In this document: positions 1 to 19,058 of the stretch, piece by piece
Position numbering within the stretch: the stretch's first letter is position 1
How the letters are laid out: each line of letters starts with the position of its first letter
DNA from: Roseibacillus sp.
Lineage (GTDB): Bacteria; Verrucomicrobiota; Verrucomicrobiia; Verrucomicrobiales; Akkermansiaceae
Reading direction: 5' to 3'
NCBI GenBank assembly: GCA_051251855.1
Contig: JBPOGI010000002.1
Location: 64,001-128,000 of the forward strand
DNA: 64,000 nt
Made by a program: the position numbers and the translations under genes
Notes under the pieces: generated by a model
Database searches by the model: none
Told to the model about the DNA's origin: nothing
Seen by the model: only the letters and a program-made list of their open reading frames with translations

Positions 1-1688
1 GCTGAGCGGGTCTGGATCATGACCGCCCAGTCGAGGGTGAAGGTGACAGCCTCGGCTTTGTCCGGCCTGGTCTCGGAGAACGTGGTGCTGCTGTCGATCT
101 GGCCAGCATCGACCGTCAGAATTTTACGGAGCCGGTCAGTGTCGAATGGGGTCAGGTTTCCTTGCTCTGACTCTGGTGCGAGTTGGGCGCGGATATTCTT
201 TTCGAACACCGCCGCTCCCTCAGGGAATTCTTCCAGAAAGGCGTGGATGTTGCAGAGAGGAGTTCGGTCGAGGCCTGTAATCTTCAGAGTGAGGCTATCA
301 GCGCTGCCAACAAATTCGACCGGAATAGCAAGGAGAGGAAAGCGCAGCCGCTCGGGACCAGAGCGATAAGTCATGCCCACCCCCCACACCATTTCCTGTG
401 GATTGGCTGCCGTTCCGGTTTGGAGCTGCTGACGATAGGAAAAGAGGTCTTGGTAGAGCTTAATGGTCTTGCGCCTTTTCGCTTCCTCTACCGACCAACG
501 TTCCCAATCGGGAAAGTAACTCTCCCACTCGTGTTGGACCTCAAGGTAGTCCTCCAGTTTGTGCACCACAAAGACGCTTTCTGGAGGAGTGAGCGGCAAT
601 TCTTTGGCGGGATCATCTTCAGATAGTTCGGCAATCTCCTTCTTCCGCTGCTCAAATTCTTCCCAGAGTAACGCGGTGGCCTCCTCATCCAAGACGCTGA
701 TTTCCGCTGCCAGTTCCGGAGTCCTGTCAGGATCATCTACCACCATCGTCCAAGCATCCAAGATTTCGGGTAAGGCTGGCGGCTCGATGGGCTTCAGGCG
801 CTCAATAGACAGCCAGCATGAGGAGTCTGGGTTTTCGTCTCCGAGCAAGATTCCCGGCAGTCCCTCAATGGCCTCGTTAGTTAGGTCGCACCAACGGATG
901 CGAGAGTCTGCTCGAATGTCGCAGAGAGGAGTCAGGTCCATCTTGTACCACTCTTCGAGAAAGCCGAACATCTTGGAGAGGTTTGGGGCGAGGCCAGGAT
1001 TTTGTTCAGCAGTGGGGGGCATCAGGTCAGTGGAATTTGTGGACTGAGAGGGCTCAGGAGAGACTTCTTTATCGTTTTGGGATGATGAATTGTGCTCTGG
1101 GAGATGCAACGAACCTTTGTCGGTAAGTGTCCACGAATAGTCGGTTTCGTCGATTTTGACGAAACCGCGTGCTTGTAAGTCATAAAGTTCCCGATTGATC
1201 GACTTTTTCTCGTCCTCAAAGAAAGAAGCCATCTCTTTGGCCTTTGTATGTGGGTTCAGGTGGAGAAAGGCAATGATCGCGGTCAGTCGCTCAGCAGTCC
1301 TCTGCTGGTCCGGCGTTGTAGAGGAGCTCTTTTCTGACCTCCATGGGAGGAGGTGCTCGTTCTCTTTGCCGAGCTGAATCCAGTGCGGAGTTGTCTGTCC
1401 AGCTAGAATGGTGGGGAGGTGCTTGCGGAGATTCCAAGCCAAATAGGCCGCCCCCTCTTCCCGAGAGGATACCTCGTCGGGCACTTCAAATCGAATCTCG
1501 GCGAGCGTACGGGAGGTTTGCAGGATTCCCGTAAAGAGAACAGAAGGCTGAAAGTTTCGACCTTGTACTCGAAGGGCTCCCAAGGAGAGGTTCCCAAAGT
1601 CATAGCTCAGTTCAGAGAGATCGTATTCGTCCTGCTCAGTCACCGGCTCGAAGCCAAACTCAGGAAGGAAGGTCCACAAATCACACAT
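1..1688 (-). CDS. Large protein, N-terminal 562 aa only (runs off window); resembles the N-terminal region of SF1 helicase / AAA-domain nuclease fusions; contains a Z-alpha-like winged helix
   Basis: My translation from ATG 1688 (MCDLWTFLPEFG...) is open to the window edge; absent from the ORF track because no stop is in view. The motif LYQDLFSYRQQL..EMVWGVGM..LRFPLLAIPVEF recalls that family; helicase motifs are not visible here. Confidence 0.65.
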   Translation of the reverse strand, partial: MCDLWTFLPEFGFEPVTEQDEYDLSELSYDFGNLSLGALRVQGRNFQPSVLFTGILQTSRTLAEIRFEVPDEVSSREEGAAYLAWNLRKHLPTILAGQTTPHWIQLGKENEHLLPWRSEKSSSTTPDQQRTAERLTAIIAFLHLNPHTKAKEMASFFEDEKKSINRELYDLQARGFVKIDETDYSWTLTDKGSLHLPEHNSSSQNDKEVSPEPSQSTNSTDLMPPTAEQNPGLAPNLSKMFGFLEEWYKMDLTPLCDIRADSRIRWCDLTNEAIEGLPGILLGDENPDSSCWLSIERLKPIEPPALPEILDAWTMVVDDPDRTPELAAEISVLDEEATALLWEEFEQRKKEIAELSEDDPAKELPLTPPESVFVVHKLEDYLEVQHEWESYFPDWERWSVEEAKRRKTIKLYQDLFSYRQQLQTGTAANPQEMVWGVGMTYRSGPERLRFPLLAIPVEFVGSADSLTLKITGLDRTPLCNIHAFLEEFPEGAAVFEKNIRAQLAPESEQGNLTPFDTDRLRKILTVDAGQIDSSTTFSETRPDKAEAVTFTLDWAVMIQTRS

Positions 1689-1690
1689 GG

Positions 1691-2947
1691 TTAGAGAACG
1701 GGATTTGTTTCGGCTTGCTCATGAAGCTGCTCAAGAAGTTTGACGTAAATCATCGCCCGCGAGATTAGTTCTTTGGCAAATTCAGTTCTTTTCTTTAAAT
1801 CAAAAAAATCAGCGATGACGTTGTCGGTCATGACCCAAGGATGTTCTAAGTTGTGGTAGCCTACGGGCCACATTTCGCCGTGCCAAGGAGCTAGCGGATC
1901 GGCCTTGTGGACTTCGTTTTCTTCACTCTCAACGCATAGGAGCTCATCAAGTACAGCCAGAGTAGAAGCCTCTTTTTTGGTTGATTCGCCAATGTTCCAT
2001 TTGGACTCTATCCCGATGACCAGAGCGCTTCTCTTGGCAAAATGAAGAATTACAATTTGATAGCGAGTGGCGGCAAAAGGACCTGAGGCTGGCGATAGTC
2101 TAATTGATCCCAAAGGATCTTTTCCGAACCGATTGTCAATAAAGTTGGCGCGTAGTTTGCCCGGATAGTCAGGTGGAAGTTCTGCAATTAAACTTTCAGC
2201 AAGGAGATCGAGGGCTCTTGCTTTGACTTCCTCAACGCCAGCGTTGAAGTCCGCTCGCATACGAATGAGGTTGGGATTGGCGACGAGGTGATCGGCGATG
2301 TCTTTCATAGCTTGGTGTTCGAGTGTTCGACCGGTAAGGGTCCGGACCAAGTGGCGGTATTGGAGGAGGACTTGGTTTACAGGGATGATTGAGAAGGTTG
2401 CGGATAGACAGCTATCGAGCCAAGGGAGGATATGGTCTCGATAGGAAATACGAAGATAATCAGCTCCCTCGTGGGTGTAAGATTCTTTTCCGTCCAAAGT
2501 GAGATAAATGAGGAGATTGTTTTCTGGATAGTTGTCCTCAAGGTATTTCGCGTAGCGGGCGAGTTGTCTCGGTTGTTCGACTGCATCGATCTTATTTTCA
2601 ATCGCAATGCCCATTTCGGACGATTCGAGGAGGAGATCAATCTGGCCTTGTGCTGTGATAGCTTCTTTGCGGACCTCAAAAGAATCACTCTGAAAGTCTT
2701 TGGGTGCTTCTTTAAGAGAATCGAAGAAGAGGCTGAGAAAGAGTTCTCCGCAATCGTGAGTCCCCAACGGGTTGAGAAGATTATGTATGAAGCGGGTGTG
2801 GAGCCTCACTTCGTCATTCGCCTTTAGGACAGTGGTGAAGACGTTAAAATTAGAATGAGTCGCGCGAGCGCGCTCCTCATTGCGAACTCGCCACTCCTGC
2901 ACCAAGTCAGAGAGTGATGAAAGTTGATTAAAGTCGGCGGTGGTCAT
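1691..2947 (-). CDS. PD-(D/E)XK nuclease family protein (PDDEXK_4-like)
   Basis: FNVF..DEVRLHTRFIHNLLNP.GTH, IDLLLES..IAIENKIDA.EQPRQLARY. Confidence 0.85.
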   Translation of the reverse strand: MTTADFNQLSSLSDLVQEWRVRNEERARATHSNFNVFTTVLKANDEVRLHTRFIHNLLNPLGTHDCGELFLSLFFDSLKEAPKDFQSDSFEVRKEAITAQGQIDLLLESSEMGIAIENKIDAVEQPRQLARYAKYLEDNYPENNLLIYLTLDGKESYTHEGADYLRISYRDHILPWLDSCLSATFSIIPVNQVLLQYRHLVRTLTGRTLEHQAMKDIADHLVANPNLIRMRADFNAGVEEVKARALDLLAESLIAELPPDYPGKLRANFIDNRFGKDPLGSIRLSPASGPFAATRYQIVILHFAKRSALVIGIESKWNIGESTKKEASTLAVLDELLCVESEENEVHKADPLAPWHGEMWPVGYHNLEHPWVMTDNVIADFFDLKKRTEFAKELISRAMIYVKLLEQLHEQAETNPVL

Positions 2948-3009
2948 GATGGGATTGGCTGAGGTCGTAGAGCCTATCGTTTTAAGACGAAGTTTAAGAG
3001 CAAGAGCTG

Positions 3010-3696
3010 TTACAAATGCCCTCCCGGTCGAGGGAGGTCATCCCAATTTCCATCAAAGCAATTTGCCGCTGTGCCTACAAACGCTTCGAAAAATCGTCGC
3101 CGCATATCGGAGTCTTCTTTGAATACTGACATCCAAACGCCAAAAAAACCGTAGCCCTTTGCTACATCCGTGATGGTTTCTCGCATTTCATCAGTGTCGT
3201 TTCTTGTAAGCGCGGCAAATTTTCTGATGGCAAGTTCCCACACTAATTCTCGGTTTGCGAATCGCGCGTCTCGCTCGGCAGGTTGTTTTTCGGGTGGTTG
3301 TCCCGGATGCCGATCTAAACCTACGAGATCGATGAGTTCTACGGCTTTGTCTTTAAGCTCGGAGGATAGGCCATCTGCGGTTCCAATAAGACCGCCTGGT
3401 TGATAGCCGATGGCTCTAAGAGTATTGTCTTTGTCCGGCCAGACAAAGTCGTTGTCGTTTGTGGGTTTTGCTTTCTTTACAGAATTACAACTCTTGCAAG
3501 CCAAGAGGAAGTTGGTCCAATCTTTTTCTCTCTCCTCGTCTAGGCTTTTCGGAGAGACGTGTTCGACAGCAAGCTCGCTTGGGAAATGACGCTCGCAATA
3601 GGAGCAATAACATCCTAGGCGTTCTTCGAGATCTCCAATGGCGTCACCGTAGTGACTGTATTCTCTGGGAGCGCTGCCTCTTTCTACCGGTCTCAT
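3010..3696 (-). CDS. HNH endonuclease, Septu PtuB-like
   Basis: YCSYCE...VEHVSPKS...WTNFLLACKSCNSVK; overlaps the upstream ATPase by 4 bp. Confidence 0.85.
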   Translation of the reverse strand: MRPVERGSAPREYSHYGDAIGDLEERLGCYCSYCERHFPSELAVEHVSPKSLDEEREKDWTNFLLACKSCNSVKKAKPTNDNDFVWPDKDNTLRAIGYQPGGLIGTADGLSSELKDKAVELIDLVGLDRHPGQPPEKQPAERDARFANRELVWELAIRKFAALTRNDTDEMRETITDVAKGYGFFGVWMSVFKEDSDMRRRFFEAFVGTAANCFDGNWDDLPRPGGHL

Positions 3697-5168
3697 TGGT
3701 CTTCGTGTTGTAGCTCTTCGGACTTGAGCAATGCATGGAGAGCAGGGTGCGAAGTGAAGGGCTCGGACGCTTCTCGATACGCCAATTTGGCCTCCTTGAT
3801 GCTTTCGTGGTTTTGGGGTTCTTCACGCAGTAGGGAAAAATATCTTGTTGCGGCTTTACTTAGTTCTTCAGCCCGTCTTCCTCGCTGTGGTAAATCGATT
3901 CCTTGAATGTCTTCGACAATGTCTTCGATACTTCTGCTTTCGGCTTCGAAGGAATGAGGTCCAGCCTTGGTTACCTTCATAATTTTTTCGACTGGGACGC
4001 TTTGAATGACGAAGGGGGAATGGGTCGTGGCGATGAACTGGCAGGATGGAAAAAGCTCTTCCAGATAGGGGACGATCATTCGTTGCCATCTCGGGTGAAG
4101 GTGAACGTCGATCTCGTCGATAAGAATGATTGCTGATGATTCTGTGATTGGGGAGGATGGATCAAGAGACAGGTTCCACGCGATGTCAATGAACAGGGAG
4201 AGCAACCGCTGTTCCCCATCCGAGAGTTGACCAATCGGCAAGCTGCCATCGGGTGTGTCGATGACAATCCTTGGCACGAGTTTGACTTCCGCCACATATG
4301 AATCGATGAACGACGGTTCCCTTAGATCTGTAACCTCAAGTGCGACTTGGGCAAGTTGTCTAAAGGGTGTTGATACGATGCCTAGTTTTTCATTGCCCTT
4401 TATAAAACCATCGGCATTTATAGTGATACTCCTTTCTTCAATGCCGTTGAAAACATCGGGATTGAGCTGGAAGATTCTCATCAAGAGTTCCGGCATGTCT
4501 TTGACAAAATGAGCCTCTTCTTTGTCTCCAAGATGTTTTTCATCTACTCTGTTGAGCGAGCAAGAGTAAGCTTCAAACCGCCAATGAAATTTAGTAATTC
4601 GATCAGAAATTCTAGAGAGAGCATCTTCTAGAAAAGCTCGAATTTCAAGGCCACGGACTGAACTCTCGCTAGTAGGGTTGGCAGGCTGACTAACGCGTTG
4701 TGGGCGTTGCTTGGATTCGTGCTCTAGTTGGTAAATTCTTTCCTGAAAATCAATGTTACGGGTCGAGCTTTTATTTTTTGGCGTCCATGGGGGTCTTCCT
4801 CTCAAGTTGTTTACAAGAGCTTCATTCGACCCATAGAAGAGGATCTTTATATCAGATTTGTCTCCTCCACGATAAAGTCGATCACCGAATCGACGCTGGT
4901 ATTGAAAGTCTCGTTTTTGATGATTATCGCCGACCAGAGAAGTTAAAATTTGAAGGCTGTCTTCTCCAAGTCGTATGTCTAAGTTGTTCAACGCATGTCT
5001 TTTTAAAGAGATTTTCCTCGGTGAACCCAAGCACATGAAGATTGAGCGAAGCACGGTAGTTTTTCCAAATCCGTTTTCGCCGACCAAAAGATTGAAGCCT
5101 TTATTAAAACTGTATTTAGCTTCCGCGAACTGTCTCACGTTATTCAATCGAAGTTTTTCAATGTGCAT
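3693..5168 (-). CDS. ABC/AAA ATPase, Septu PtuA-like
   Basis: Walker A GENGFGKT, signature LSDGEQR, Walker B ILIDEIDVHLHPRWQR, TTHSP. Confidence 0.85.
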   Translation of the reverse strand: MHIEKLRLNNVRQFAEAKYSFNKGFNLLVGENGFGKTTVLRSIFMCLGSPRKISLKRHALNNLDIRLGEDSLQILTSLVGDNHQKRDFQYQRRFGDRLYRGGDKSDIKILFYGSNEALVNNLRGRPPWTPKNKSSTRNIDFQERIYQLEHESKQRPQRVSQPANPTSESSVRGLEIRAFLEDALSRISDRITKFHWRFEAYSCSLNRVDEKHLGDKEEAHFVKDMPELLMRIFQLNPDVFNGIEERSITINADGFIKGNEKLGIVSTPFRQLAQVALEVTDLREPSFIDSYVAEVKLVPRIVIDTPDGSLPIGQLSDGEQRLLSLFIDIAWNLSLDPSSPITESSAIILIDEIDVHLHPRWQRMIVPYLEELFPSCQFIATTHSPFVIQSVPVEKIMKVTKAGPHSFEAESRSIEDIVEDIQGIDLPQRGRRAEELSKAATRYFSLLREEPQNHESIKEAKLAYREASEPFTSHPALHALLKSEELQHEDQ

Positions 5169-5183
5169 ATTATTGGAGCTGGT

Positions 5184-6514
5184 TTAGATGTTACGGACGT
5201 CGATCTTGCCGGTGACGGCGGCGGAGATGAGGGCGGTCCGGCGTTCTTGAAGGAGGGCGATTTGGGTTTCTGCTTTTGCGTTTGAATCGTCAAACTTTTC
5301 GGTGAATTCATTCAAGTAAGCCAAGATTTCGGGCAGCTCGTCATTGCTAGGAATTGCGATGGGAATATTGCCTAAGTCTTCCATAGAAAGATTTGGCTGC
5401 GCAGCTTGGACAGAATTTAGGCTGATTGAGTTAAGAGCCACATCTGTTCCGAGCCATAAATCCATCCAATGAGAGAAGTGTTTTTTAAAGAGTCGTAGAT
5501 AGCAGACTGCCTGATTTGTGTTGGAAGGTAGTAACTCTCTTTGCAGAACTGCCGATTTTCCAGTGGTGGCTCCTGCTATTACTACAAGAACATCGTTTTC
5601 CTCGAGATTTCCGCGAGAAAGGATCTTATGAGAATTCTGAGAAATGAAAAATTCGGGAGTATTAGAGACACCAGTTGTGGTGATGTTTTCAGCTTTTAAG
5701 AATCTGACTCCTGAGTCAATGAACTCAGCGCCGACCGTCGACGGAGTAGTTCCCTTTGAAATGATTGAGCAAAGGTTCTTTATGCGTTTTACCGACCAAT
5801 GTTCAGGGACTTGGCCGAGCCATTCGATGCCGGAGTCTTTGAGGGGGGCCTGGGGATTGAGGCCTTTGGTGACGGCGTGGCTGATGACGGCTTGGCGTTT
5901 TTCTTTGAGCAGGGCAATCAGCTCTTGCTGCTTCTCGATCAAAAGGTCGATCTTCCCCGTCTCGTGGTCGAGGAATTTGGCGATTTGTATTTGTTCGGGG
6001 AGGGGTGGCTTGGGTGAGTCGAAATTTCCAAGCTCTTCATTAGAGATTTCAAGAAAAGTGCTACCTCGACCGAGAACGTTCAATTTTTCGGAACTCACCA
6101 GCAGGAAGTAGAATAGAAACTTAAAGTCTGTGTTCTTTTCAACAACTAGCGACTTACAGCCTTGGTTTGTGCAAAGGTTGGTTGAAGCGATTCCGAGGGT
6201 TCCGATTGGGGCTCTTGATGAGAGAATTAGAGAACTTTGTGGAACCAGAGATGTCCCACAGGATTCATAACCTTGTTTAGTAATGCTTCGCGCTCCTCTT
6301 GTGATGTAGGGAGTGGAGTCCTTGCCCAAATCAGCAGGTGTTACCCATGGTATGTCACCATCCCAAAACCGAGTAGTATCAGATTTGGGTGTAGAGCCGT
6401 TGTGAAGCAGGCATAGGCGCTTGATCGTTGATGTAATCCAGTGATTAGGAAGCTCCCCCAACCACTCAATCCCCGAATCCTGATACTCTGGATAGGCTTG
6501 ATACCTTCCGGTTT

Positions 6515-6518
<4 letters not shown>
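5184..6518 (-). CDS. hsdS: Type I restriction-modification specificity subunit
   Basis: Start moved to [12 protein letters not shown] (ATGA overlap with the hsdM stop); two [11 protein letters not shown] repeats, two TRDs, C-terminal [12 protein letters not shown]. Confidence 0.93.
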
Positions 6519-8836
<2,318 letters not shown>

Positions 8837-8945: not shown

Positions 8946-10079
8946 TCAAGCGGAAGGGACGAGGGGCGGGCCCTCAGTGGTGTTTGTCCTTTTGTGGGGC
9001 TCCGAACGCACAAGAGAGCCGTCGTGAAAGGACGAAGGGAACTCTCGTTTCTGGAGGTCGAGGGGCCATTCTTCCCACCTGCCACCATGTGGATCCCGGA
9101 CTTTTAGGGGGAAGCCGTTGTCTAGAATATTCGCCCCGAGCTGCTTCATGAAGAAGGCGGTCTCGCTCTGCTGGCATTGTGATTGAATCGAGCGGGCCCA
9201 ATCGAGATCAAATGGTCGCGCGAGCTTGCCGCTTTCGCCACCCACGATGGCCCAGTCGATTCCTTGCAGATCGAGAGTGACGTCTTCCCGCAGGGGCTCG
9301 ATGCTGAGGCCACGAACTTTGGCAGGAACCTTTCTGAGGTCGGCGATTCGACTGGAGGTGGCTTGGCTGGTGATCGTGGTCATGGCCACAAGATTGTCGG
9401 GCCAGGTCTGACCTTGGGACTCAAGCCACTGAGCAAATTCGGCCATTCGCTTGGGACGCTTGGTCAACCATTGCCAGATGTGACGCTGGCCTTGAGGGCT
9501 GGTGACGCTGTCGATGACTTCGGTTTTCAGGTAGTCGAATCCAATGGACTTGGAAAGGGCGTCACCCATATCGGAGACGAAGATCAAGCGTGGTAGGTTG
9601 TCGAGCCAAGGTGAGCCTTTAGTCTTCTTTCCCCAGAGGTCGGGGAGCTTAGCAGCCTTCGCGATCCGCCCCGGGAACATCTCGGGGCGCTCGAAGATGG
9701 CGGCGTATCCTTTCACGGAAGGAATTGACCAATCGGAAGGTTTCCCTCCCCGATAGGCATGCAGAATGGCGGCATAACAGGTGAGGATTTGCTCGATTTT
9801 GTCGAGCCAGTAGTGGGCGGCGACGTCAGCAATCAGTCTTTCTAACTTGAGGGCGAGCTCGACTCGGTCGTGATAGATCTGGGTCGAGTATTGATAGGAA
9901 TTGATTGCCGTGCGAACGGCAGTCGTGATTGGCTCCTTCCCTTGTTTGGAGAGAGACAAAGCAAGGGCGATGAGTTCGGACTTTATCTTGGAAGGATTGG
10001 GCCACAGTTCACAACCATCACATCCCATGGAAGGATTGGCGGTGGTGTGAGTCCATTGAATTTTGGTGGTTAGGCTCAT
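8946..10079 (-). CDS. DUF5131 (phage Gp37/Gp68-like, radical-SAM-like) protein
   Basis: TKIQWT..TANPSMGC, CYA, IFVSDMGD, LTKRP, SIEPL, WAIVGGESG, FFMKQLG. Confidence 0.88.
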   Translation of the reverse strand: MSLTTKIQWTHTTANPSMGCDGCELWPNPSKIKSELIALALSLSKQGKEPITTAVRTAINSYQYSTQIYHDRVELALKLERLIADVAAHYWLDKIEQILTCYAAILHAYRGGKPSDWSIPSVKGYAAIFERPEMFPGRIAKAAKLPDLWGKKTKGSPWLDNLPRLIFVSDMGDALSKSIGFDYLKTEVIDSVTSPQGQRHIWQWLTKRPKRMAEFAQWLESQGQTWPDNLVAMTTITSQATSSRIADLRKVPAKVRGLSIEPLREDVTLDLQGIDWAIVGGESGKLARPFDLDWARSIQSQCQQSETAFFMKQLGANILDNGFPLKVRDPHGGRWEEWPLDLQKREFPSSFHDGSLVRSEPHKRTNTTEGPPLVPSA

Positions 10080-10085
10080 GGTGCT

Positions 10086-10853
10086 CTAGGTCTGGGGTCC
10101 AGGGGTGGGGAGGTCTTTGTTTTTGAGGAGGGTTTGCAGTTCGGCGATGGCCATATCGGCGACTTCGTAAGCTTCTTGGTCTCTCCGACTGCCTATCGAT
10201 TTGGAGAGTGCTGCCAAGAGAGAGGCGGTCACCCGTTGGACCTGCGCCTGGAGTTTGGGATCTCTTGTTGAGTCCTTGGCGGGATTGTCAGGAGAGAAAT
10301 GGTTGCTGATGGTCTCCACGTCAACGAGTGCGTCTTCGAGGGAGAGCTTGCGGGCGTCCGTTTTGCTTCCGTCGGCTAGAATTAGGGGAGAGGAGGCTGA
10401 TTCACGGGACTGACTTCTCCCTTGTTGAATCTGCTTGAGCCCATTCTCTTTCTTCTTGGCGTCCTTCTTTGCGAGGTGGGCCTGAATGCCTCCTATCGTC
10501 AAATCGGAAAGGTCTTCCGATTTGGCGTAGGCTTCCAAGCTGGGATAATTCTTGGTTTCCTCCCAGATGCGGATGTAGGTGCTCGCACTGCGGGGGTGGA
10601 TTTTCAGCTCCTCCCCAGTGTAATCCTCCCAAGTGCCATGAGGCTTAGACTCTTTGAGATCGGCAAGCAGTTCCCCCAACTCACGTGCGAGATGGAGGGT
10701 CTTGCTTCTCATAGAGCCGATGGTTTGGCTCAGTTCTCTGGCCTTGTTTTCTTTCTGAAGGGTTTTGGTGTTTTCTATTTCTGCATCCGTTGGCACCCGG
10801 TCTGGTGCGGGTGGGACGACCTGGGGGACAACTGGTGGGGTGTCGGGTTTCAT
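10086..10853 (-). CDS. DUF3102-like protein
   Basis: ELGELLADLKESKPHGTWEDY...RSASTYIRI; probable start MKPDTPP after a terminator-like hairpin. Confidence 0.65.
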   Translation of the reverse strand: MKPDTPPVVPQVVPPAPDRVPTDAEIENTKTLQKENKARELSQTIGSMRSKTLHLARELGELLADLKESKPHGTWEDYTGEELKIHPRSASTYIRIWEETKNYPSLEAYAKSEDLSDLTIGGIQAHLAKKDAKKKENGLKQIQQGRSQSRESASSPLILADGSKTDARKLSLEDALVDVETISNHFSPDNPAKDSTRDPKLQAQVQRVTASLLAALSKSIGSRRDQEAYEVADMAIAELQTLLKNKDLPTPGPQT

Positions 10854-10876
10854 TTCTTTAGTTTGTTGTAGTTGGT

Positions 10877-10912
10877 AAAAAAATGGGGCGCAGGAAATGA
10901 ATCCCACGCCCC
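10877..10912 (-). terminator. Intrinsic terminator-like hairpin
   Basis: GGGGCG..CGCCCC stem followed by a T7 tract on the minus strand. Confidence 0.6.
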
Positions 10913-10927
10913 GTTGTTCTTGTTTCG

Positions 10928-11452
10928 TTATGCCGCATCAATCAATCGACCTAACTCGTTTTTCAGGCGGACTTTGTCTTCCAGACGGAGCCGACGTGCT
11001 TGGTTTAATACCGTCGCAAGATTCAGCTTTTGAGGCTTCTTCGTTCTTCCGCGATGGTCGGCTTTAGAAGCCGTTCGTCGCGGTTGTGGTCGCGTCACGC
11101 GTTCCCGAATCGGTGATGCCGGGTCAGGTGCTGAATCAGGGGTGTCAGCCCTCGGTTCTGGTTGCGTCTCCACGACCTCATCTTCCGAGCCAGGGGGGAG
11201 CTGCGTTGGAGTGGTATTGTCCTTCGGATGAAAGACGCTGGCCACTTGGGGAGTGTTCTCTAACACTTGCCTGATTTCCTCTGGGTTCACCAGATAAGGC
11301 TGACGCTCGCCTTGCTGTTCTTTTCTTACCTTATTGCCTTTGGCCCATCTCTTAACCGTGGATTCTGCGCAGCCGTATTCGGCGGCTACTTCTTTACAGG
11401 TAGCCCACTTTGTCTCTTGTGAGGCCGAAGCCTCTTCGTTGGTTGTGTTCAT
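10928..11452 (-). CDS. Helix-turn-helix (MerR/excisionase-like) DNA-binding protein
   Basis: WATCKEVAAEYGCAESTVKRWAK followed by a Pro-rich linker. Confidence 0.65.
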   Translation of the reverse strand: MNTTNEEASASQETKWATCKEVAAEYGCAESTVKRWAKGNKVRKEQQGERQPYLVNPEEIRQVLENTPQVASVFHPKDNTTPTQLPPGSEDEVVETQPEPRADTPDSAPDPASPIRERVTRPQPRRTASKADHRGRTKKPQKLNLATVLNQARRLRLEDKVRLKNELGRLIDAA

Positions 11453-11613
11453 AATAAAATTCTAAAATAAAATTGAGGGCTCCTCAGATTCTGGGAGGAG
11501 CCCAGTTGGTTTTGAGAGCCCCCCAGCTGGGGCTCTTCGGACGGAATGTCCGATTGGAGGCGTTGCTCCATTGTTGGACGCTTCGGACACAACTTACGTC
11601 ATGTCCTCCGCAG

Positions 11614-11647
11614 AAACCCATCGGGCACCTCTCGATGCAATGGGCTT
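11614..11647 (-). ncRNA. Group II intron domain V
   Basis: AAGCCCATTGCATCGAGAGGTGCCCGATGGGTTT: 34 nt, AGC triad, 9-bp + 5-bp stems, GAGA tetraloop, 2-nt bulge. Confidence 0.88.
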
Positions 11648-11666
11648 ACTCCAGACGACACCACGC

Positions 11667-13412
11667 TTACGGATGACAATTCACATGAACGAGTTCTGGG
11701 ACGGAATTGCCGTCCCGAAGAGTGGAGACTTGCTGCATACCGTCGCCTGCTAAGAAGCGTCGTTTGCAGTGCGTGCATTTCCCGAGCTGACGCTTGAGAG
11801 ATGAGCGGTTAATCCCACTGGGTATATTTGGATAGGAAGAGGTTCGCCCCCCCCAGTAGTGCCAATCCCCATCAAAGTATGACCGGGAGATTTGCACCAT
11901 GGGAGGAGACCATGCGGTAGATACGTCAGCCACTTTAAAGAGTGTGACATGTTCACCTGCGGGCGACACGTAAGGGCTTTTAAAAACCCAACTGCGTTCC
12001 CGGTCTTCACCATCGCGTCTCTTCATCGGTTTGCCTTCCTTGTCGCGTTCAATCCCTCCGAAGAGGTTATCCCTGCGCCAAGCGGCGGTCTTATGTTTGA
12101 AGCTCCTACTTCCCCAATGGGAGAGGGCCACATAAATGCGATGATCGACCTTGCTGAATGTTCTCTTTGCATTGCAGTGGCGAAAGTAGTTCGCCCATCC
12201 AGCTTGCTTGGCATTTGTCCGACGGATCAAAGTAGAAACTTTGTCGTCTTGGCCTTTGGACATTTGGTGCCTATGTGCTCCTCTTTGCTTCTTGAGGATT
12301 TTAGTATTCTTGATGTAGCCCCTTATTTCGGTCAGATGGCGGGAGACGCTTTTATCTGAGGGAGTGACGATGAAATAGGGTGGTGTTCCTGGCTGTTTAG
12401 CCGGATCGTTGTATCTAGGCTTGCTGAAGTGTTGGAAGTGGAATCCGAGGAAGGTAAATCCAGCACGGTCTCCGTCCTCCGCTTTCTCAAGCGTGTGCCT
12501 AATTTTGGTTTTGCTAGGGTTCAGTGACAGACTGAATTTGCTGAGATATTCCACGAGGGCTATCTGCGCATCTTTGACGATGTCTTTGTCTTCGTGGAAG
12601 ACAAGGAGGTCGTCGGCATAAATAACCAACCCGGGTGTTGGACATCCTTTGGGGAGGATGAGCTTTTCGTTGATGAAATCGGGTAGCCCGGTCATCACGA
12701 TATTGGCGAGGAGAGGGCAAAGAGGGCCTCCTTGCGGAATGCCGTCTTCTTGTTCTCCATCAAGTGTCACCAGTATTCTGCTGACCGCCTTTCGGATCCC
12801 TCTGGTCGAGTCGATCTTTGCTATCAATGTCTCTCGGTCGATGGAGTCGAAAAATTTAGAAATGTCAGCGTCGAGGACCCACGAAGGGCGCTTCCTGAGC
12901 ATGTTCTCAATTTGTCGTCTGGCATCCTGCTGACTTCGCCCCTTTCTGAACCCGAACATGCGTTTGGGAAAGCGTGCTTCGCTCTGGGGTTCGAGCGCCA
13001 TCCGAATCAGTTCCTGGTGGGCTCTGTCGATCAGGTTAGGGATGCTCAGTTTGCGTTTTTCATTCGTGCCCGCCTTTGCGATCTCGGTGTATCGGGGCGG
13101 GGAAGGCTGGTGCTTTAGAGAGAGCGCGATTGCCATCTCGTAGCATGTTTCCTTGTTGGGATTTTTAAGTCTATCCGGTCCGGCCGTTTTGCGGCCGTTG
13201 TTTTGTAAGCAGACTTTGCGCACAGCCAGCGCGCGTGCGCTGAATGATCGCGTAAGTCGCTTTTGCAATCTTTGTGTTAAATGTGAATTTTCACCGTTTC
13301 GTGTGGCGTGATAAATGGCGCTTTGAATTGTGAAAGCTTCCTGTTGAAGCTCTTCCCAATCTAGCTTGTTCCAATTCTGTGCGGCCTGTTGCCGCGATGT
13401 TTTGTGGTTCAT
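11667..13412 (-). CDS. Group II intron reverse transcriptase/maturase (RVT_N + RT + X), degenerate C-terminal HNH
   Basis: WNKLDW, GRKTAGPD, KRKLSIP..DR, FGFRKGRS, DADISKFFD, PQGG, YADD, FLGF, GWANYF. Start moved to MNHKTS because the track start at 13481 falls in DIII. Confidence 0.93.
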   Translation of the reverse strand: MNHKTSRQQAAQNWNKLDWEELQQEAFTIQSAIYHATRNGENSHLTQRLQKRLTRSFSARALAVRKVCLQNNGRKTAGPDRLKNPNKETCYEMAIALSLKHQPSPPRYTEIAKAGTNEKRKLSIPNLIDRAHQELIRMALEPQSEARFPKRMFGFRKGRSQQDARRQIENMLRKRPSWVLDADISKFFDSIDRETLIAKIDSTRGIRKAVSRILVTLDGEQEDGIPQGGPLCPLLANIVMTGLPDFINEKLILPKGCPTPGLVIYADDLLVFHEDKDIVKDAQIALVEYLSKFSLSLNPSKTKIRHTLEKAEDGDRAGFTFLGFHFQHFSKPRYNDPAKQPGTPPYFIVTPSDKSVSRHLTEIRGYIKNTKILKKQRGAHRHQMSKGQDDKVSTLIRRTNAKQAGWANYFRHCNAKRTFSKVDHRIYVALSHWGSRSFKHKTAAWRRDNLFGGIERDKEGKPMKRRDGEDRERSWVFKSPYVSPAGEHVTLFKVADVSTAWSPPMVQISRSYFDGDWHYWGGRTSSYPNIPSGINRSSLKRQLGKCTHCKRRFLAGDGMQQVSTLRDGNSVPELVHVNCHP

Positions 13413-14064
13413 AGAATCGAAGACTGCCTTTTGGTCGTCTTTCCGCGAATTCAGCCTATCCCTTCGATTACCGAAGGGCATTCGCTTGGTCGCTTACCTA
13501 CCCGGGAAGGCATAAGGCTAGGTCCCATCCCTTGCGTCGCCGCGAGGGAAGCCAGTCCCGGTGTCCGAGTTTTCTTGAGGTCTGCGTATGCCGGAAGTCT
13601 TGCGTGCTCCACGCCGCGAAAAGCTCTAGCTGAAACTAGAAACCTGGCGGATAACTGAATCACACATCATCAGCTACAGGTAGGAAGGCATAAGGCCTTT
13701 CCTCTTTTCGGCATTGTTGTTACGACGCTCGATAACACGTTCGCTGTTCGCTCAACTCTTCCGGCGCAAGGTCTGCCCGCTACCCCCAGGATCGCTTCTA
13801 GTGCTAACCCGGAAGGGGCTTTCCTTCGCCTACCGCGCGGCGGCTATCGCGCTCCGTAAAAAGGGGCGTGATAGCTTACCTCAAGAACATCAAGTTCGGG
13901 ATTGGACCGGAACTTGTGGCTCTTTCCTCTTCCCCGACAGAATGCCGGCGAAGCTCCCAGAGCCAATCACGTCGCTTGAGTGAAAATTAAAAAATAGGAT
14001 ATGTTAAAGAACAGGGGACTGAAGAGCAGTGCTCTTTCAGCGGGCACTCGGGCCCTAGGTATTG

Positions 14065-14310
14065 TCACGCGTCGCCACCTTCGGCCTGACCATCGAGGTA
14101 AGACTTTAGGCTCTCAAAACACACCAGCCGTCGACCGGTTTTGTGCCCTTTCTTCTTCAGCAGCACCGACTTGATTTTTCGGTTGCCGATGAGCGCATAG
14201 AGGGTGGTTCGTCCGATTCCAAAAAGCTGAACAGCTTCCGGGATGCGGATGTAAACCGGGTCGCGATTGACCGTGGTGCTTTGTGTTGGTTCCGTCGGGG
14301 ACATGGCCAA
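14065..14310 (-). CDS. Excisionase/AlpA-like HTH protein
   Basis: YIRIPEAVQLFGIGRTTLYALI...IKS...GRRLV..ESL..YL. Confidence 0.8.
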   Translation of the reverse strand: MAMSPTEPTQSTTVNRDPVYIRIPEAVQLFGIGRTTLYALIGNRKIKSVLLKKKGHKTGRRLVCFESLKSYLDGQAEGGDA

Positions 14311-14611
14311 AGCTGTCGTCGAATCGGAGGTGAATTCAATGGAGAAATGAGCGTGGAGTCCGGCTAACTACCGGATAAAACTGCTTTATCCTTTTTTATC
14401 TTTTCGGGTGGATGTGGCTAATTTTTAGTGGTTTGTGGCTCGGCCAGATTGGGGTTTTCTGATCGAACTCAAAAAGTGTGCCTGCCGGCTCTGAGTTCGC
14501 CGGAGATTGCCCTGTTAGAAACATTTTCCGCCACGCTTTGAGCAGATTGGGAGGGAGAGGAGGCTCGTGAAGCGGCTTACAAGGGGCGGTTGCACCGAGC
14601 TTCGTGGAGCT

Positions 14612-14660
14612 AAAAAAGTCTGCCGCAGGGGCACCATGTGGCACCCCGGCAGCAGACTTT
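14612..14660 (-). terminator. Intrinsic terminator after DUF932 gene
   Basis: Long GC-rich stem (GTCTGC..GGGGTGCC/GGTGCCCC..GCAGAC) plus T6. Confidence 0.7.
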
Positions 14661-14667
14661 GCTAGCT

Positions 14668-15474
14668 CTAATTTGCGATACCAACAAAGCCGTCGCAAAG
14701 GCCATGGAGAGCCTCGCTACGGCGCATTGTGGTTGCTGGATTTTGCTTCTTGTATGCCTCGGTAAAGGCGTTGAAGAGGCTCCACAGATTCCGTGGTCGG
14801 AATTCACCGTGCGATGGTTCACGCCATTCCTTGAGGACTTCAGGGAGCTGGCTTGGAGTGATTGCGTTGCAATCCACAGCTCGGACAACCATGTCGTGTG
14901 CCGCCCAATCGGCGACCAAGGCATTCTTGTATGAGTCGATGCGTTTGTCCAACTTCTCGAATCGGTCTCCGAGTTGCCCGATAGCGCCAGCAGTAAGCTC
15001 TCGTAGATCCCTGTAGGCGTGCCGGGTGTGTTTCCGGCTGATTTTCACCTCACCGCAAAAGGCGAGGTTGTCACAGGTGAAGACCGAGGTGCCAGCGACA
15101 ACGCCAGCAGGAAAGGTCTTATCATGACTATTTCGCAGGCCAACGACCCATGCATAGTCACGCTCATCTTGGCCGAATTGCTTAACTTCCATCACGCCGA
15201 AGTAGCGAGCGCCTTCGTGAGAGAGAGCATGGCTTTCTCGACCGATAGAAAAGCCACAACCTTCGAGCCTGCTTTGCACTTCCTCCAAAAGAGCACGGTG
15301 AGACAAGGGAAACCATGTGTCGGTTCCGCGAGGCGTCTTTACTCCGTAGAGGGTATTTCGGTCGACAAGGTCAGCACCGCAATGCAGCAGCATTCCTTTG
15401 ACTGGTTGTTCTGGGACAGGAGCGACGATGCTGAATGGAGTCGGCTCGCCGGTGGGTAGTGGTAATATGTTCAT
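14668..15474 (-). CDS. DUF932-family protein
   Basis: MLLHCGA, TWFPLSH, RYFG, GLRNSHDK, VFTCDNLAF, RKHTR; probable start MNILPLP. Confidence 0.8.
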   Translation of the reverse strand: MNILPLPTGEPTPFSIVAPVPEQPVKGMLLHCGADLVDRNTLYGVKTPRGTDTWFPLSHRALLEEVQSRLEGCGFSIGRESHALSHEGARYFGVMEVKQFGQDERDYAWVVGLRNSHDKTFPAGVVAGTSVFTCDNLAFCGEVKISRKHTRHAYRDLRELTAGAIGQLGDRFEKLDKRIDSYKNALVADWAAHDMVVRAVDCNAITPSQLPEVLKEWREPSHGEFRPRNLWSLFNAFTEAYKKQNPATTMRRSEALHGLCDGFVGIAN

Positions 15475-15499
15475 AATTTTTGTTTTGTAGTTTTTAGAG

Positions 15500-15540
15500 A
15501 AAAGAAAAAGGGCGGCTTCGAAGTGAATCGAAACCGCCCT
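15500..15540 (-). terminator. Intrinsic terminator-like hairpin
   Basis: AGGGCGGTTTCGA..TCGAAGCCGCCCT plus T-rich tail. Confidence 0.65.
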
Positions 15541-15564
15541 CATTTGTGTCGTGGTGCTAAGTGC

Positions 15565-16353
15565 CTAACAGGTGCTTTCAGCTCCCTGCCATTTCAGGCA
15601 CTCTTCGCGGTATGCGCACCACGAGCAGTGCATCCCGGGTTGTGGATGGAAGACCCCGTCCGCGATGCCTTGGACCGCAGTCTCAAGCATGGTGATCACG
15701 CGATGCTTCCGCGCTTCGTCGGCGGGCGGTGTGCTAATACGGATCACCGACGGTGTCTTCGTCTTCACAAGAAATACAAGATCGAGCGATGGCGGTTTTT
15801 CACCATTGGCCTCAAGCATGAGCTGGTAGCTCACGAGTTGAAGTTCATGATCGAAAACTGCCTGTGCTGGGTTCGGCTTAGAGGCAGCGGACTTAAAATC
15901 GACAGGCGTAAAGTCGCCCTCAACCAAATCCATCGCCCCCGTTAAAGGCACCGAGAGCCCAGGAATATCTTCCTTGAGAAAGACCTCCACCGCCTTTGGC
16001 TTTTTCTTCAACACTTCGGGGGAAGCGAGATAGGCAGAGATAACACGCTGACCATCAGCCATCGCTTTTTCACGCTTGGTCGAGTCGCCGAAGTTCATAG
16101 GGCCCTCGTCTTGCTCCAGTTGCAGAAAGGCCTCGTCGAAGGCCGTCGCTACGAATTCTGAAGAATCATCCTCGCCTCGCCATCTTGCTAGGTGGAAGGC
16201 TTGCAGAGCTGCATGAATCGCCTTCCCCAGATGGAGCGCAACCGAAGTCGGCTTCTTGATGTTCGCCACGCGCTCAAAGTAGAAGCGCAACGAGCAGCCT
16301 AAATACGATTTGGCTGCCGAGGGGCTAATGTATTCGGGAAGAGTTTGCATCAC
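15565..16353 (-). CDS. Cas4/RecB-like PD-(D/E)XK exonuclease with four-Cys motif
   Basis: ISPS...YLGC, GKAIH, GAMDLV..VDFKS, QLVSY, HCSWCAYREEC. Confidence 0.85.
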   Translation of the reverse strand: MMQTLPEYISPSAAKSYLGCSLRFYFERVANIKKPTSVALHLGKAIHAALQAFHLARWRGEDDSSEFVATAFDEAFLQLEQDEGPMNFGDSTKREKAMADGQRVISAYLASPEVLKKKPKAVEVFLKEDIPGLSVPLTGAMDLVEGDFTPVDFKSAASKPNPAQAVFDHELQLVSYQLMLEANGEKPPSLDLVFLVKTKTPSVIRISTPPADEARKHRVITMLETAVQGIADGVFHPQPGMHCSWCAYREECLKWQGAESTC

Positions 16354-16883
16354 GCTGCCCTTCTACGATTGCCCCCGGAATAAGCTGATTTGCTCCGGGG
16401 ATTTCCGCCGCCTTTTGGCTTTCCGCCATAGAGGTCCAGCAACTCGTCAATGAGTCCCGACGCCTCAAGCTTGTTCAGACGTTTTACTCCCGTGCCGAAG
16501 CGTTCGACCGCGAGGGCCTCGATGTCCTTTTTGTTCAGCTGGTTCTCGTCCACGATCTTGAGGATTAAGTCGCGCTGTTTTTCGGAACAGCTCCAGCCCG
16601 ATCTGCTTTGCCATTGGGTGATGTTTGTAGGCTCCAGATCAGAAGTCGCTTCCGATGCTGAAGAGGAATCCGGTTGGTCCATTCCATAAGTGGAATTCGG
16701 GACGAATCCTGTCTCCAGAATCTGCCGATCCACATTTTCCTGAAGCAAATGGTAGAGACTTTCAGACTCCTGTTCGAAGTCATCAGTTGTCATCAACTCC
16801 GTCTCGACTGAGACTGAGTATTGGTGTGAGGAGTAGCCCGGAAGTCCCAAGCGTTTTGAATAGTTTGCAATAAGTTTGATCAT
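16350..16883 (-). CDS. Hypothetical protein of integrative-element module
   Basis: 177 aa, ANYSKRLGLPGYSSHQYSVSVE; 4-bp overlap with the nuclease gene. Confidence 0.75.
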   Translation of the reverse strand: MIKLIANYSKRLGLPGYSSHQYSVSVETELMTTDDFEQESESLYHLLQENVDRQILETGFVPNSTYGMDQPDSSSASEATSDLEPTNITQWQSRSGWSCSEKQRDLILKIVDENQLNKKDIEALAVERFGTGVKRLNKLEASGLIDELLDLYGGKPKGGGNPRSKSAYSGGNRRRAA

Positions 16884-16916
16884 AATTTTAATTGGTTGAG
16901 GTTAAATTGAATGGAC

Positions 16917-17060
16917 TTAGCGCACCTGAGCTAGTCGGAACAGCAGTGTCACCACAACCGCTCCGGCTAACATTGGGAGCCAAAAGTCCGAAAAGACCGA
17001 GCAAGCCAACGCCACAAGCGAAAGCCATGCGAAGCCTTTGAGATAAGAAATCGGGTTCAT
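16917..17060 (-). CDS. Small hydrophobic membrane protein (47 aa; not in ORF track)
   Basis: MNPISYLKGFAWLSLVALACSVFSDFWLPMLAGAVVVTLLFRLAQVR; fills the gap between co-oriented genes. Confidence 0.55.
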   Translation of the reverse strand: MNPISYLKGFAWLSLVALACSVFSDFWLPMLAGAVVVTLLFRLAQVR

Positions 17061-17078
17061 GCGAAACGACGTTGAGGG

Positions 17079-17327
17079 TTAGTCCAACATGCGTCCCAAG
17101 ACACAAACTACCGAGGCTCCTAGCATCGCGAACCCAATCACTTTCAACCCGGAACCAACTGGCTCGGTATCAGTGACAGGGCGTGGTGGGGGAGGGGGCT
17201 CTTCTTCTTTACAAGAAGCACAAGCCAACACCGCCCCAGCAAGAGGAAGCAATAAAAGCCGACGTCGAAGCCGGCCTGAAAAAGAGCCCGCTGGACCCTT
17301 CCGAAGAAGAATAGAATGAGTAGTCAT
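17079..17327 (-). CDS. Small lipoprotein-like membrane protein
   Basis: RRRLLLLPLAGAVLACASC signal/lipobox-like segment, poly-Pro, C-terminal hydrophobic helix. Confidence 0.55.
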   Translation of the reverse strand: MTTHSILLRKGPAGSFSGRLRRRLLLLPLAGAVLACASCKEEEPPPPPRPVTDTEPVGSGLKVIGFAMLGASVVCVLGRMLD

Positions 17328-17351
17328 AAGAATTTCAATGAGGTTAAAGCA

Positions 17352-17383
17352 CAAAGAGCCCAGCATTATTGCTGGGCTCTTTG
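17352..17383. repeat. Perfect 14-bp inverted repeat
   Basis: CAAAGAGCCCAGCA-ttat-TGCTGGGCTCTTTG. Confidence 0.85.
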
Positions 17384-17542
17384 CAGAAGTGATTAAGGCT
17401 AAAACGCCTCTCTCAATTTCTTATGACACGTGAGAGGAGGGAATTGCACCGATCAGAGTCAGAACAGGAGTTTAAAGCCACGGAGTTAAGCTCCTCTGTC
17501 CAGAATTGACTAGTTTCCTGCTTCCGCTTTTACTCACTTGCA

Positions 17543-19021
17543 GTGAAATGGTTTTATTTAGATAATGAGGATTCTGTAGTCGGCCCAGCTACCGAATCGG
17601 CCATCCGGGAGCTTTACGCAGAAAATATTCTGAAAAGAGGAGCGCTAATTGCTGCCGAGGGAACTGAAGAATGGGTCCCAGTCGAAGAAACGATCACAGG
17701 TCTCAGCTCTGAGGCTTCCTCAATTCCTTCTCCTCCCGCAGTAGATACTCAGCAAAGCAGTGCTCCCAAGAATCGGCTGGAGTCCAAGAAGCCAGGAGTT
17801 CCAACGATCGACAAAAAGCGTATGCGCGAAGTCGGGCTAAAAGCCGGCGAAGCGGGTATCAAAGCCAGCGCTGCTGCAGGAAGCGCGGCCGGAACTTTTG
17901 CCAGCACCGGAAAATTATTCACTGAGCGCTTCTTGAGAAGTGACCTTCTCAACCAAACTTTAACTAAGGATGAATTTGAAAAGCTTGAGACCGCCAATTC
18001 CCCGATCGATAGCACCGCAGTGAGAAATCTGCTTGCGTGGCGAAGATCGCTTCTTTGGATCGCAGGATTGGCTTTAATTTTGAGTAGTGTTCTGTCACTC
18101 GATCATTTTGTGGGTAGTACTGGAGATAACTTTCCGTGGATTTGGTGGGTAACCGAGGGCACTCAGGCTCTCTCGGTCTTTTTAGCTGGAGTTTTAGCTC
18201 TTCGAGGAGCTGTGATTTGGACCAATATTAAAAATACGAGAAGGTTTGCACGTTATAGCTGGATTTGCATGTTTGTAGTCCCATTCGTAATAGCTTTAAT
18301 ACCGATTACTCCTTTCTTAGATGACCGAATATATGATTCGTTTCTAAAAGGAGAAATTCGGGTACAGCTTGTAATTGAGTCCTTTAGGACGCTCACTCCT
18401 CTGGTTTTCGGACTTTTTTCAGGAGTCATCCGATCCTCTTTGACTCTTAAAACGATGCTCCCAGAGTCTCCCATGCCAGGTTGGGTTGCTGCGATTTTGT
18501 CTCCTATATTTAGTTTGGTGTATCTTATCTTTCTGGTCGCATCAGTGCAGTCTGAGCAGCTTTTGCTGTCGGTAGCGTTTGGGGGTTTGTTGATGGGACC
18601 GCTGATTCTGACACTAAATGTTAGAAATCTCACACGGCCGGTTTCTCATTCGGGCCTTGAAAAAGGTCTAAACAAGGCCCGCCGAGCTAGTCGGCTCGCG
18701 ACAACTTTAGGTTTTGTTGCCTTGCTTCTTTTTCTAGTCGTCAATTTTGAGTTTGTCTCCGATCTTCAGATCGGACTCCTAGGTGTCATTAACTTTCTCT
18801 TAGGGCTGATTGCATCGGTCTTAGTGATTACGGTAGCTAGCTCTGATTTCCTCCTTAGCCTTTTTAAGTCCTCATTTGATCGGGAGGCAGAACTTAAAAG
18901 CACTCCTCTTTATGATGACCTAAATTTGCGCTTCATTGAACTCGATCAGCTCGGGCTTACGGAATTGCAAGCAGGCGAGGAGGAGTTACTGAAAAAAGTG
19001 AGAGGGAAAAGAGATGAGTAA
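17543..19021 (+). CDS. GYF_2 (DUF4339) domain multi-pass membrane protein
   Basis: KWFY.....VGP....IREL.......LI..EG.EEW.P, then several hydrophobic segments. Confidence 0.75.
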   Translation: MKWFYLDNEDSVVGPATESAIRELYAENILKRGALIAAEGTEEWVPVEETITGLSSEASSIPSPPAVDTQQSSAPKNRLESKKPGVPTIDKKRMREVGLKAGEAGIKASAAAGSAAGTFASTGKLFTERFLRSDLLNQTLTKDEFEKLETANSPIDSTAVRNLLAWRRSLLWIAGLALILSSVLSLDHFVGSTGDNFPWIWWVTEGTQALSVFLAGVLALRGAVIWTNIKNTRRFARYSWICMFVVPFVIALIPITPFLDDRIYDSFLKGEIRVQLVIESFRTLTPLVFGLFSGVIRSSLTLKTMLPESPMPGWVAAILSPIFSLVYLIFLVASVQSEQLLLSVAFGGLLMGPLILTLNVRNLTRPVSHSGLEKGLNKARRASRLATTLGFVALLLFLVVNFEFVSDLQIGLLGVINFLLGLIASVLVITVASSDFLLSLFKSSFDREAELKSTPLYDDLNLRFIELDQLGLTELQAGEEELLKKVRGKRDE

Positions 19022-19058
19022 AATCTCAGTCTTCCAAAAACGTTGATTCACCTCTGAT

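Follow-up and report, generated by a model that had tools for sequence, protein, structure and literature searches.

A Z-alpha-like winged helix on a Roseibacillus defence helicase-nuclease and its relatives on other bacterial defence proteins

The window, a stretch of 64,000 nucleotides of Roseibacillus sp. (contig JBPOGI010000002.1, positions 64,001 to 128,000 of the forward strand), encodes near its left end a helicase-nuclease, residues 129 to 194 of which (window positions 1107..1304, minus strand) form a winged helix resembling the Z-alpha domains of animals and their viruses. We found that this domain belongs to a family of Z-alpha-related accessory domains on bacterial defence proteins, which is real and apparently undescribed before; judged by its residues, the window copy is among the most complete members. 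Our preferred reading, to which we give a probability of about 0.45, is that the domain, tethered to the helicase-nuclease, acts as an accessory grip of the Z-alpha type on DNA that is left-handed or underwound, and not as an essential trigger.

The known Z-alpha domains for which binding of the Z-form has been demonstrated come from animals and eukaryotic viruses, and the bacterial look-alikes tested before, which are devoid of the key residues, did not bind (PMC11298590, in the available part of that paper). The presence on bacterial defence enzymes of a family with a complete recognition helix brings two questions within reach of a 60-residue protein, namely whether Z-DNA is a bacterial immune cue and where Z-alpha originated, and it suggests a specific hypothesis for the N-terminal domain of CapK, which is otherwise unexplained. 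Should binding fail, the family would represent a natural series, with Tyr, His or Ser at the key position, on the Z-specificity of winged helices.

Domain architecture and likeness to Z-alpha

An earlier note on this DNA, made from its letters alone, had translated 56 residues at 1125..1292 and compared them with ADAR1 Z-alpha. The translation is exact: the minus strand from 1292 to 1125 encodes residues 133 to 188 of an open reading frame that starts at 1688, leaves the window and ends at contig C6 59,887, with a full genomic length of 1,933 amino acids (aa). The note had taken the protein for an unannotated one, but the identical 1,933-aa sequence is present in the NCBI and Logan protein sets. 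Furthermore, one sequencing-run contig covers window positions 1-3000 with zero differences, and contigs of two other runs hold diverged copies of the domain.

The recognition-helix motif (1182..1208, minus strand), located by translation and by alignment to ZBP1 Z-alpha2, consists of K161 (codon 1206-1208), K162 (1203-1205), N165 (1194-1196), R166 (1191-1193) and Y169 (1182-1184), and the wing carries W186 (1131..1133, minus strand). All six ADAR1-type contact residues thus have counterparts, as the note had proposed, and it was also right about the Tyr-to-Trp spacing of 17 and the lack of prolines before the Trp in the wing, which is acidic. In terms of the Z-alpha family PF02295, the domain presents the NxxxY motif in helix 3 (N165, Y169) together with the wing tryptophan (W186), and the wing prolines (pPxW) that are a further feature of that family occur in 0/13 copies of the helicase family. 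Among the 7,514 reading frames of at least 150 aa in the genome, the six-residue pattern occurs once, in the window copy, and a loose NxxxY...W pattern 185 times, both patterns having been drawn up post hoc from the known match.

The AlphaFold2 model is a helix-strand-helix-helix-strand-strand winged helix (mean pLDDT 92.5), and the three helices and short two-strand wing of Z-alpha were recognized in this model, by Foldseek and by VIA. The nearest structures are ZBP1 Z-alpha2 and PKZ (Foldseek, VIA), with a root-mean-square deviation of 0.9-1.0 A over 58 columns to ZBP1 Z-alpha2 in Foldseek and the ORF112/PKZ group as the best VIA match. A Ser/Pro/Thr-rich linker (residues ~195-236; 981..1106, minus strand), which varies among orthologues, connects the domain to the N-terminal region of the helicase. 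On the other side lies a 117-aa N-terminal extension (1335..1688, minus strand), shared by the window protein and a single close relative, P0024, and without match in Pfam and plasmid searches; other orthologues begin at the winged helix.

Taken by itself, the sequence of the domain appears ambiguous. Pfam z-alpha is its best family, but with 18.1-18.6 bits it stays under the 21-bit gathering cut-off; the relative P0015 scores 21.0 bits, and motif-free generic winged helices are able to exceed the cut-off. At the profile level, four profiles place Z-alpha as the nearest characterised family. With a profile of nine orthologues, 8 Z-alpha rows lead the 44 PDB matches (ORF112 at 2.7e-8, best MarR at 1.7e-3), even though ADAR1 Z-alpha (E ~5e-3) is weaker than the best MarR. 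Upon addition of P0013 and P0015, rows 1-17 of 52 are Z-alpha (best 1e-9; MarR 7.9e-4). A profile of five members devoid of the Asn (Tyr kept in 4/5, Trp in 5/5) still has 7 Z-alpha rows at the head of its 26 PDB rows (1.3e-6). Finally, with seven domains from outside the helicase family of the window, Z-alpha comes first in the PDB (ORF112 and PKZ at 2-5e-7); this profile matches that of the orthologues at 98.9%, and its sole match in the genome of the window is the window domain, the sample not being fully independent because its members were found via the first profile. Common descent with animal and viral Z-alpha is likely: the profiles favour it, with less clear signals from the comparison with masked motif columns (see below) and from a tree that sets the bacterial copies and animal Z-alpha apart from 14/17 decoys only weakly (77/16).

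The closest known counterpart is ZBP1 Z-alpha2 (Z-beta of DAI; 3eyi, 4ka4, 2l4m), solved in complex with Z-DNA (3eyi). Its alignment with the window domain is gap-free over the recognition helix and wing, with Lys/Asn/Arg/Tyr and Trp in register, the same spacing of 17 and a wing equally free of prolines; it follows that the lack of wing prolines is no obstacle, since a solved Z-DNA binder lacks them too. Different from ZBP1 Z-alpha2, to which it is ~30% identical, the window domain is single and not tandem, has no lysine before the Trp, is fused to a helicase-nuclease and is a predicted binder at most. Cyprinid herpesvirus 3 ORF112 and the fish PKZ Z-alpha (4hob, 4wcg, 4kmf) give the best profile matches (E 1e-9 to 3e-7), but the wing of ORF112 contains proline, and their roles lie in animal immunity or viral evasion. 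In ADAR1, K169, K170 and R174 contribute to the Z-form contact. ADAR1 Z-alpha (1qbj) shares NxxxY and the Trp with the window domain, but is a weaker match, with no equivalents of P192/P193 in the latter and a spacing of 18 instead of 17. ZBP1 Z-alpha2, PKZ and ORF112 are better comparisons for the window domain than ADAR1, which the note had used. The available part of PMC11298590 describes NxxxY and Trp as essential in Z-alpha and gives the roles of N173, Y177 and W195 in ADAR1.

Bacterial winged helices have been proposed as relatives of Z-alpha before. In the available parts of these papers, the Asn and Tyr of Z-alpha are replaced by Ser and Asn in the Z-alpha-like domains of sigma-54-interacting regulators, which do not bind the Z-form (Romero 2024, PMC11298590), and arsR-type folds with Arg for Asn are put forward as relatives (Herbert 2024, PMC11293857); the family described here differs in keeping NxxxY and in being located on defence enzymes. 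The parts of Hu 2024 (PMC11946911) at hand do not mention Z-DNA, and those of a Druantia preprint cite ZBP1 merely as a parallel. Our literature search, with subscription journals mostly outside its coverage, found no paper on NxxxY-type Z-alpha domains of bacterial defence proteins; automatic annotations in databases may already label some family members.

A search of 1.84 billion representatives with a two-sequence profile returned 14 proteins: 3 invertebrate ADARs, 1 fish tandem Z-alpha protein, 4 small tandem proteins, 3 bacterial relatives and 3 unrelated repeats. Summed scores favour multi-copy matches in this search, single copies scoring 2-29 bits. The small tandem proteins (P0009, P0012, P0014 and P0017) are unnamed or misnamed, exceed the Pfam z-alpha cut-off and have Asn, Tyr and Trp in 8/8 copies. 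The second Foldseek match was a 72-aa siphovirus protein (BFVD A0A8S5QI74; 28% identity) automatically named 'Z DNA-binding protein'; a copy of the domain on the phage side would be compatible with a decoy function.

Related domains on the helicase family and on other defence proteins

With residues 120-620 as the query, we obtained 17 proteins from 8,000 scored candidates, of which 8 are close (52-91% identical overall), 1 is N-terminally short and 8 are distant (28-35%); a Roseibacillus persicicus protein is 79% identical to the window helicase, which makes a marine verrucomicrobium the probable host. The winged helix occurs in 7/8 close relatives, being the N-terminal-most element in 6 of those 7, and P0025 as annotated does not have it. 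In the 13 copies of the window family, Trp is always present (13/13), Tyr nearly so (11/13), and the hydrophobic core, like the Trp, is retained in all. The Asn of this family is old, as P0030 and P0040 show, and was lost in several branches; the window copy and its two closest relatives hold all six residues despite a 28% change in the domain. P0013 (Akkermansiaceae, QTN34165.1) has 176 aa and consists of the winged helix and GreA-C-like terminal modules only, as though the middle had been deleted. In addition, a stand-alone 78-aa frame carrying the domain, with the Asn replaced by Lys, ends the cargo after hsdM and hsdS-like genes at another locus (L184 near 7610-7850, G129:C10).

Related domains are present on several unrelated bacterial defence proteins, namely CapK kinases, a ZorC, a UvrD linked to DISARM and a further helicase type. 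In a scan of 401 genomes of the class, matches at E<=0.01 turned up in 62, and the best 30 loci were translated; three of these besides the window have Asn, Tyr and Trp, two being ~1,120-aa AAA_11/MTES_1575 helicases of a second type and one a UvrD. The helicases of the second type carry the domain N-terminally (L069:8379-11735, L070:7419-10781 and L093:1946-5275); one copy adjoins SMC and JetD-like genes, and one is in an IMG/VR contig. The UvrD, with the domain likewise N-terminal (L071:9397-11655), is the first gene of an operon of helicase, MrfA-Zn-domain, PLD and cytosine-methylase genes, which we take to be DISARM. P0015 is also a UvrD-type helicase with the domain at its N terminus. The family is rare within the sampled genomes: clear matches number 3 among 401 genomes of the phylum, window included, and no Asn-Tyr-Trp triad was found among 301 genomes of another phylum.

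When one domain of the three loci was used as a tblastn query, 39 plasmid records were matched at E<=1. These matches included the N terminus of CapK, with capK upstream of CapS and beside multiubiquitin, CBASS and type I restriction-modification (RM) genes, and the C terminus of an EH-signature ZorC-like protein (L081:7989-8168, NZ_CP133095.1) in which Asn, Tyr and Trp are present. The latter protein has 440 aa against the 687 positions of the PADLOC model, with no zorAB annotated directly upstream; the PADLOC ZorC1 model PDLC00623 includes the domain (positions 620-670 of 687) and matches 8/12 aligned members, the ZorC-like protein itself among them. Overall, the triad occurs in 3/3 helicases of the second type, 2/2 UvrD, 1/1 ZorC and 7/11 ADAR domains, and in 0/22 generic decoys.

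The N-terminal helix-turn-helix (HTH) of CapK is a member of the same Z-alpha-like family (L077:5992-6165, plasmid NZ_CP131999.1; L094-L173). The Enterobacter plasmid protein is the CapK of Chambers 2026 (PMC13373217), given that the numbering of N218, W68, K237 and K239 agrees and the same CapS accession lies alongside. The available main text of that paper calls the domain an HTH of unknown role, is silent on Z-DNA and Z-alpha, and presents CapK as a kinase regulator, different from the nuclease of the window. Our CapK set of 36 representatives (80% identity) comes from the top 80 of 206 confirmed metagenome loci, which were detected through kinase-domain patterns and ordered by their similarity to a full-length query. 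Lys/Arg is present in 36/36, Asn in 31/36 and Trp in 36/36, and the Tyr position is occupied by His in 14, Tyr in 12, Ser in 6 and other residues in 4. On a Salmonella plasmid, capK follows hsdR and is interrupted by an insertion sequence just past the start of the domain (L080:5708-5833).

Two small, very basic proteins (L072:5423-5830 and L075:5254-5631) end in an NxxxY winged helix with Phe for Trp, the former near a DUF4041/T5orf172 gene.

Proposed role and alternatives

We propose that the domain is one of a family of bacterial winged helices related to Z-alpha that is mobile and becomes attached, by flexible linkers, to the termini of defence proteins acting on DNA. In the window protein, it would provide a sequence-independent grip preferring left-handed or strongly underwound DNA. 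As in ZBP1 Z-alpha2, K161, K162, N165 and R166 would serve as contacts to the zig-zag backbone, with Y169, positioned by W186, touching a syn purine. Invading DNA may take on such a form in the wake of translocating motors or polymerases; through the grip, the superfamily 1 (SF1) helicase would become locally enriched, and its MTES_1575 nuclease would then cut. The domain would thus tune targeting toward torsionally stressed DNA, with no obligatory triggering function. The fold, the fusion, the gene context, the resemblance of the family to Z-alpha and its distribution over unrelated defence proteins are established by the above observations. We infer Z-form binding, the source of the Z-DNA and the link to cutting from the roles of N173, Y177 and W195 in ADAR1 (PMC11298590, available part), and an anti-phage activity of the helicase gene is presumed; the odds that the domain would bind the Z-form in vitro are about even. 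A wider proposal, which we regard as unlikely, is that bacteria have a genuine Z-alpha family for which left-handed DNA signals infection or DNA stress, its one module having been attached to five or more immune proteins that are unrelated to each other (two SF1 helicase-nucleases, the UvrD linked to DISARM, a ZorC subfamily and CapK). These domains would then be the counterpart in bacteria of those in ZBP1, ADAR1, PKZ and large DNA viruses, and could be the origin of the latter.

The earlier note had proposed a possible sensor of Z-DNA or Z-RNA. A sensor that triggers defence has found no support so far and agrees poorly with the absence of the winged helix in 8/8 distant helicase relatives, with the loss of the Asn in 7/13 family copies (P0013, P0026-P0029, P0041 and P0042) and with the divergence of the domain, which is 27-35% identical against 48-70% for residues 236-620 in six relatives and is the fastest-changing part compared; Z-RNA sensing found no specific support. 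These observations weigh also against the accessory grip, as do the joint occurrence of Asn, Tyr and Trp in just 6/13 window-family copies and several results reported below with the alternatives on which they bear.

The alternative that survives best, possible on odds well short of even, keeps the common ancestry with Z-alpha and makes the domain a tether that binds B-form DNA, single-stranded DNA (ssDNA) or forks irrespective of conformation, with Z-specificity arising later in viruses and animals. CapK points in this direction, as Lys (36), Asn (31) and Trp (36) are kept in the 36 copies, yet Tyr in 12 only, with the complete triad in 12/36; hence, the common function of the family needs no Tyr in CapK. 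The proline-free wing and the B-DNA binding mode that ZBP1 Z-alpha2 itself has, according to the title of 2l4m, are also consistent with such a tether. However, Tyr is nearly constant in the four contexts other than CapK (11/13, 3/3, 2/2 and 1/1), and in the available text of PMC13373217 the ssDNA site of CapK is modelled between the STAS and GHKL domains, away from the HTH.

A further reading, under which the domain would be a dispensable passenger, acquired of late, decaying in the helicase lineage and without a current role, we hold to be improbable. The low identity of the domain and the losses of Asn given above would be expected of a passenger, and so would the fragment P0013, which joins only the two terminal domains, and the 78-aa stand-alone copy with its replaced Asn in another type I locus. 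Deletion of the domain from a CapK copy with Asn, Tyr and Trp was likewise silent, leaving mitomycin-induced expression unaltered, the stimulus being mitomycin and not phage infection (PMC13373217, available part); this is the one experiment on a family member, with a neutral to negative outcome. Against decay, the window copy and the two proteins closest to it retain the six residues amid 28% change in the domain, and no copy has lost the Trp or the hydrophobic core.

Even less probable is an ordinary MarR/IclR-type winged helix, with a likeness to Z-alpha in Asn, Tyr and Trp that arose through convergence or chance. A better match to generic families, which the note had named as part of its refutation, was obtained in one respect, MarR being slightly above Z-alpha in the single-sequence PDB search, and not in the other, since the family profiles favour Z-alpha. 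Moreover, the fold scores are tied, the ESM Atlas neighbours of the domain are generic winged helices (0.89-0.91), and with the Asn, Tyr and Trp columns masked the Z-alpha signal has no lead over the top-scoring generic winged helices. In contrast, the E-values of the four profiles place Z-alpha one to six orders of magnitude ahead of every winged helix of a transcription factor, and the triad is absent from all the generic decoys. As a specific candidate, a MarR-family regulator (a ~140-aa dimer with helices flanking the winged helix) was rejected: the window protein has a lone terminal module of 66 residues without the dimer helices, followed by a Ser/Pro-rich linker, and MarR ranks under Z-alpha for all family profiles.

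Scarcely credible is a domain that binds a protein, either a phage factor or an operon partner, with a merely retained nucleic-acid-binding look: it would agree with the slightly acidic character (median charge -2) and with fast change, gain and loss as in an arms race, but its conserved residues at the surface coincide with the ones directed at nucleic acid in Z-alpha (PMC11298590, available part), and no partner gene is common to the contexts examined.

The helicase-nuclease and its operon

The note's 'probable helicase-nuclease' holds, because AAA_11, AAA_12 and MTES_1575 match the 1,933-aa protein; the window contains its 5' part (1..1688, minus strand), and the whole is an SF1 helicase with an MTES_1575 nuclease and a GreA-C-like tail, the likeness of the tail being derived from P0013 and P0025. 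The best PADLOC model is PDC-S37 (E=5e-69, best stretch at model positions 763-1400 of 1550, without a curated cut-off), followed on the helicase part by MkoA and Hhe (best stretch of Hhe 1329-1734). The window protein shares with PDC-S37, Hhe and Mokosh-type proteins the AAA_11/AAA_12 helicase, the Vsr-like MTES_1575 nuclease and the embedding in a type I RM operon, but its PADLOC matches are limited to the helicase and nuclease part, and it has no DUF4011 or kinase match. HheA has an N-terminal DUF4011 followed by a helicase and a Vsr-like nuclease; we rejected identity with Hhe, DUF4011 being absent from the 19 Pfam families matched. Our literature search found no paper on PDC-S37.

The defence-operon setting was likewise borne out. 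On the same strand, the order is hsdM (6515..8836; Pfam/PADLOC), hsdS (5184..6518, its start taken at an internal ATG overlapping the hsdM stop), a Septu PtuA-like ABC/AAA ATPase (3693..5168; PADLOC PtuA E=8e-60), a Septu PtuB-like HNH nuclease (3010..3696; PADLOC PtuB E=4e-76), a PDC-S26-like PD-(D/E)XK nuclease (1691..2947; Pfam PDDEXK_4 E=2e-25, PADLOC PDC-S26 E=9e-65) and the helicase, all on the minus strand, followed past the left end of the window by GmrSD and hsdR. The defence cargo thus sits inside a type I RM operon, with the helicase between hsdS and hsdR, which is the kind of context by which PDC candidates are defined, namely embedding in a type I RM, BREX or DISARM operon (10.1101/2024.01.29.577857, available part).

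Upstream of the operon (8946-20216), we noticed genes for DUF5131, DUF3102 and an HTH_17 protein, a group II intron-type reverse transcriptase (11667-13481) and, by eye, an integrase-like reading frame (19059-20216). The presence of these genes suggests that the operon may ride on an integrative element.
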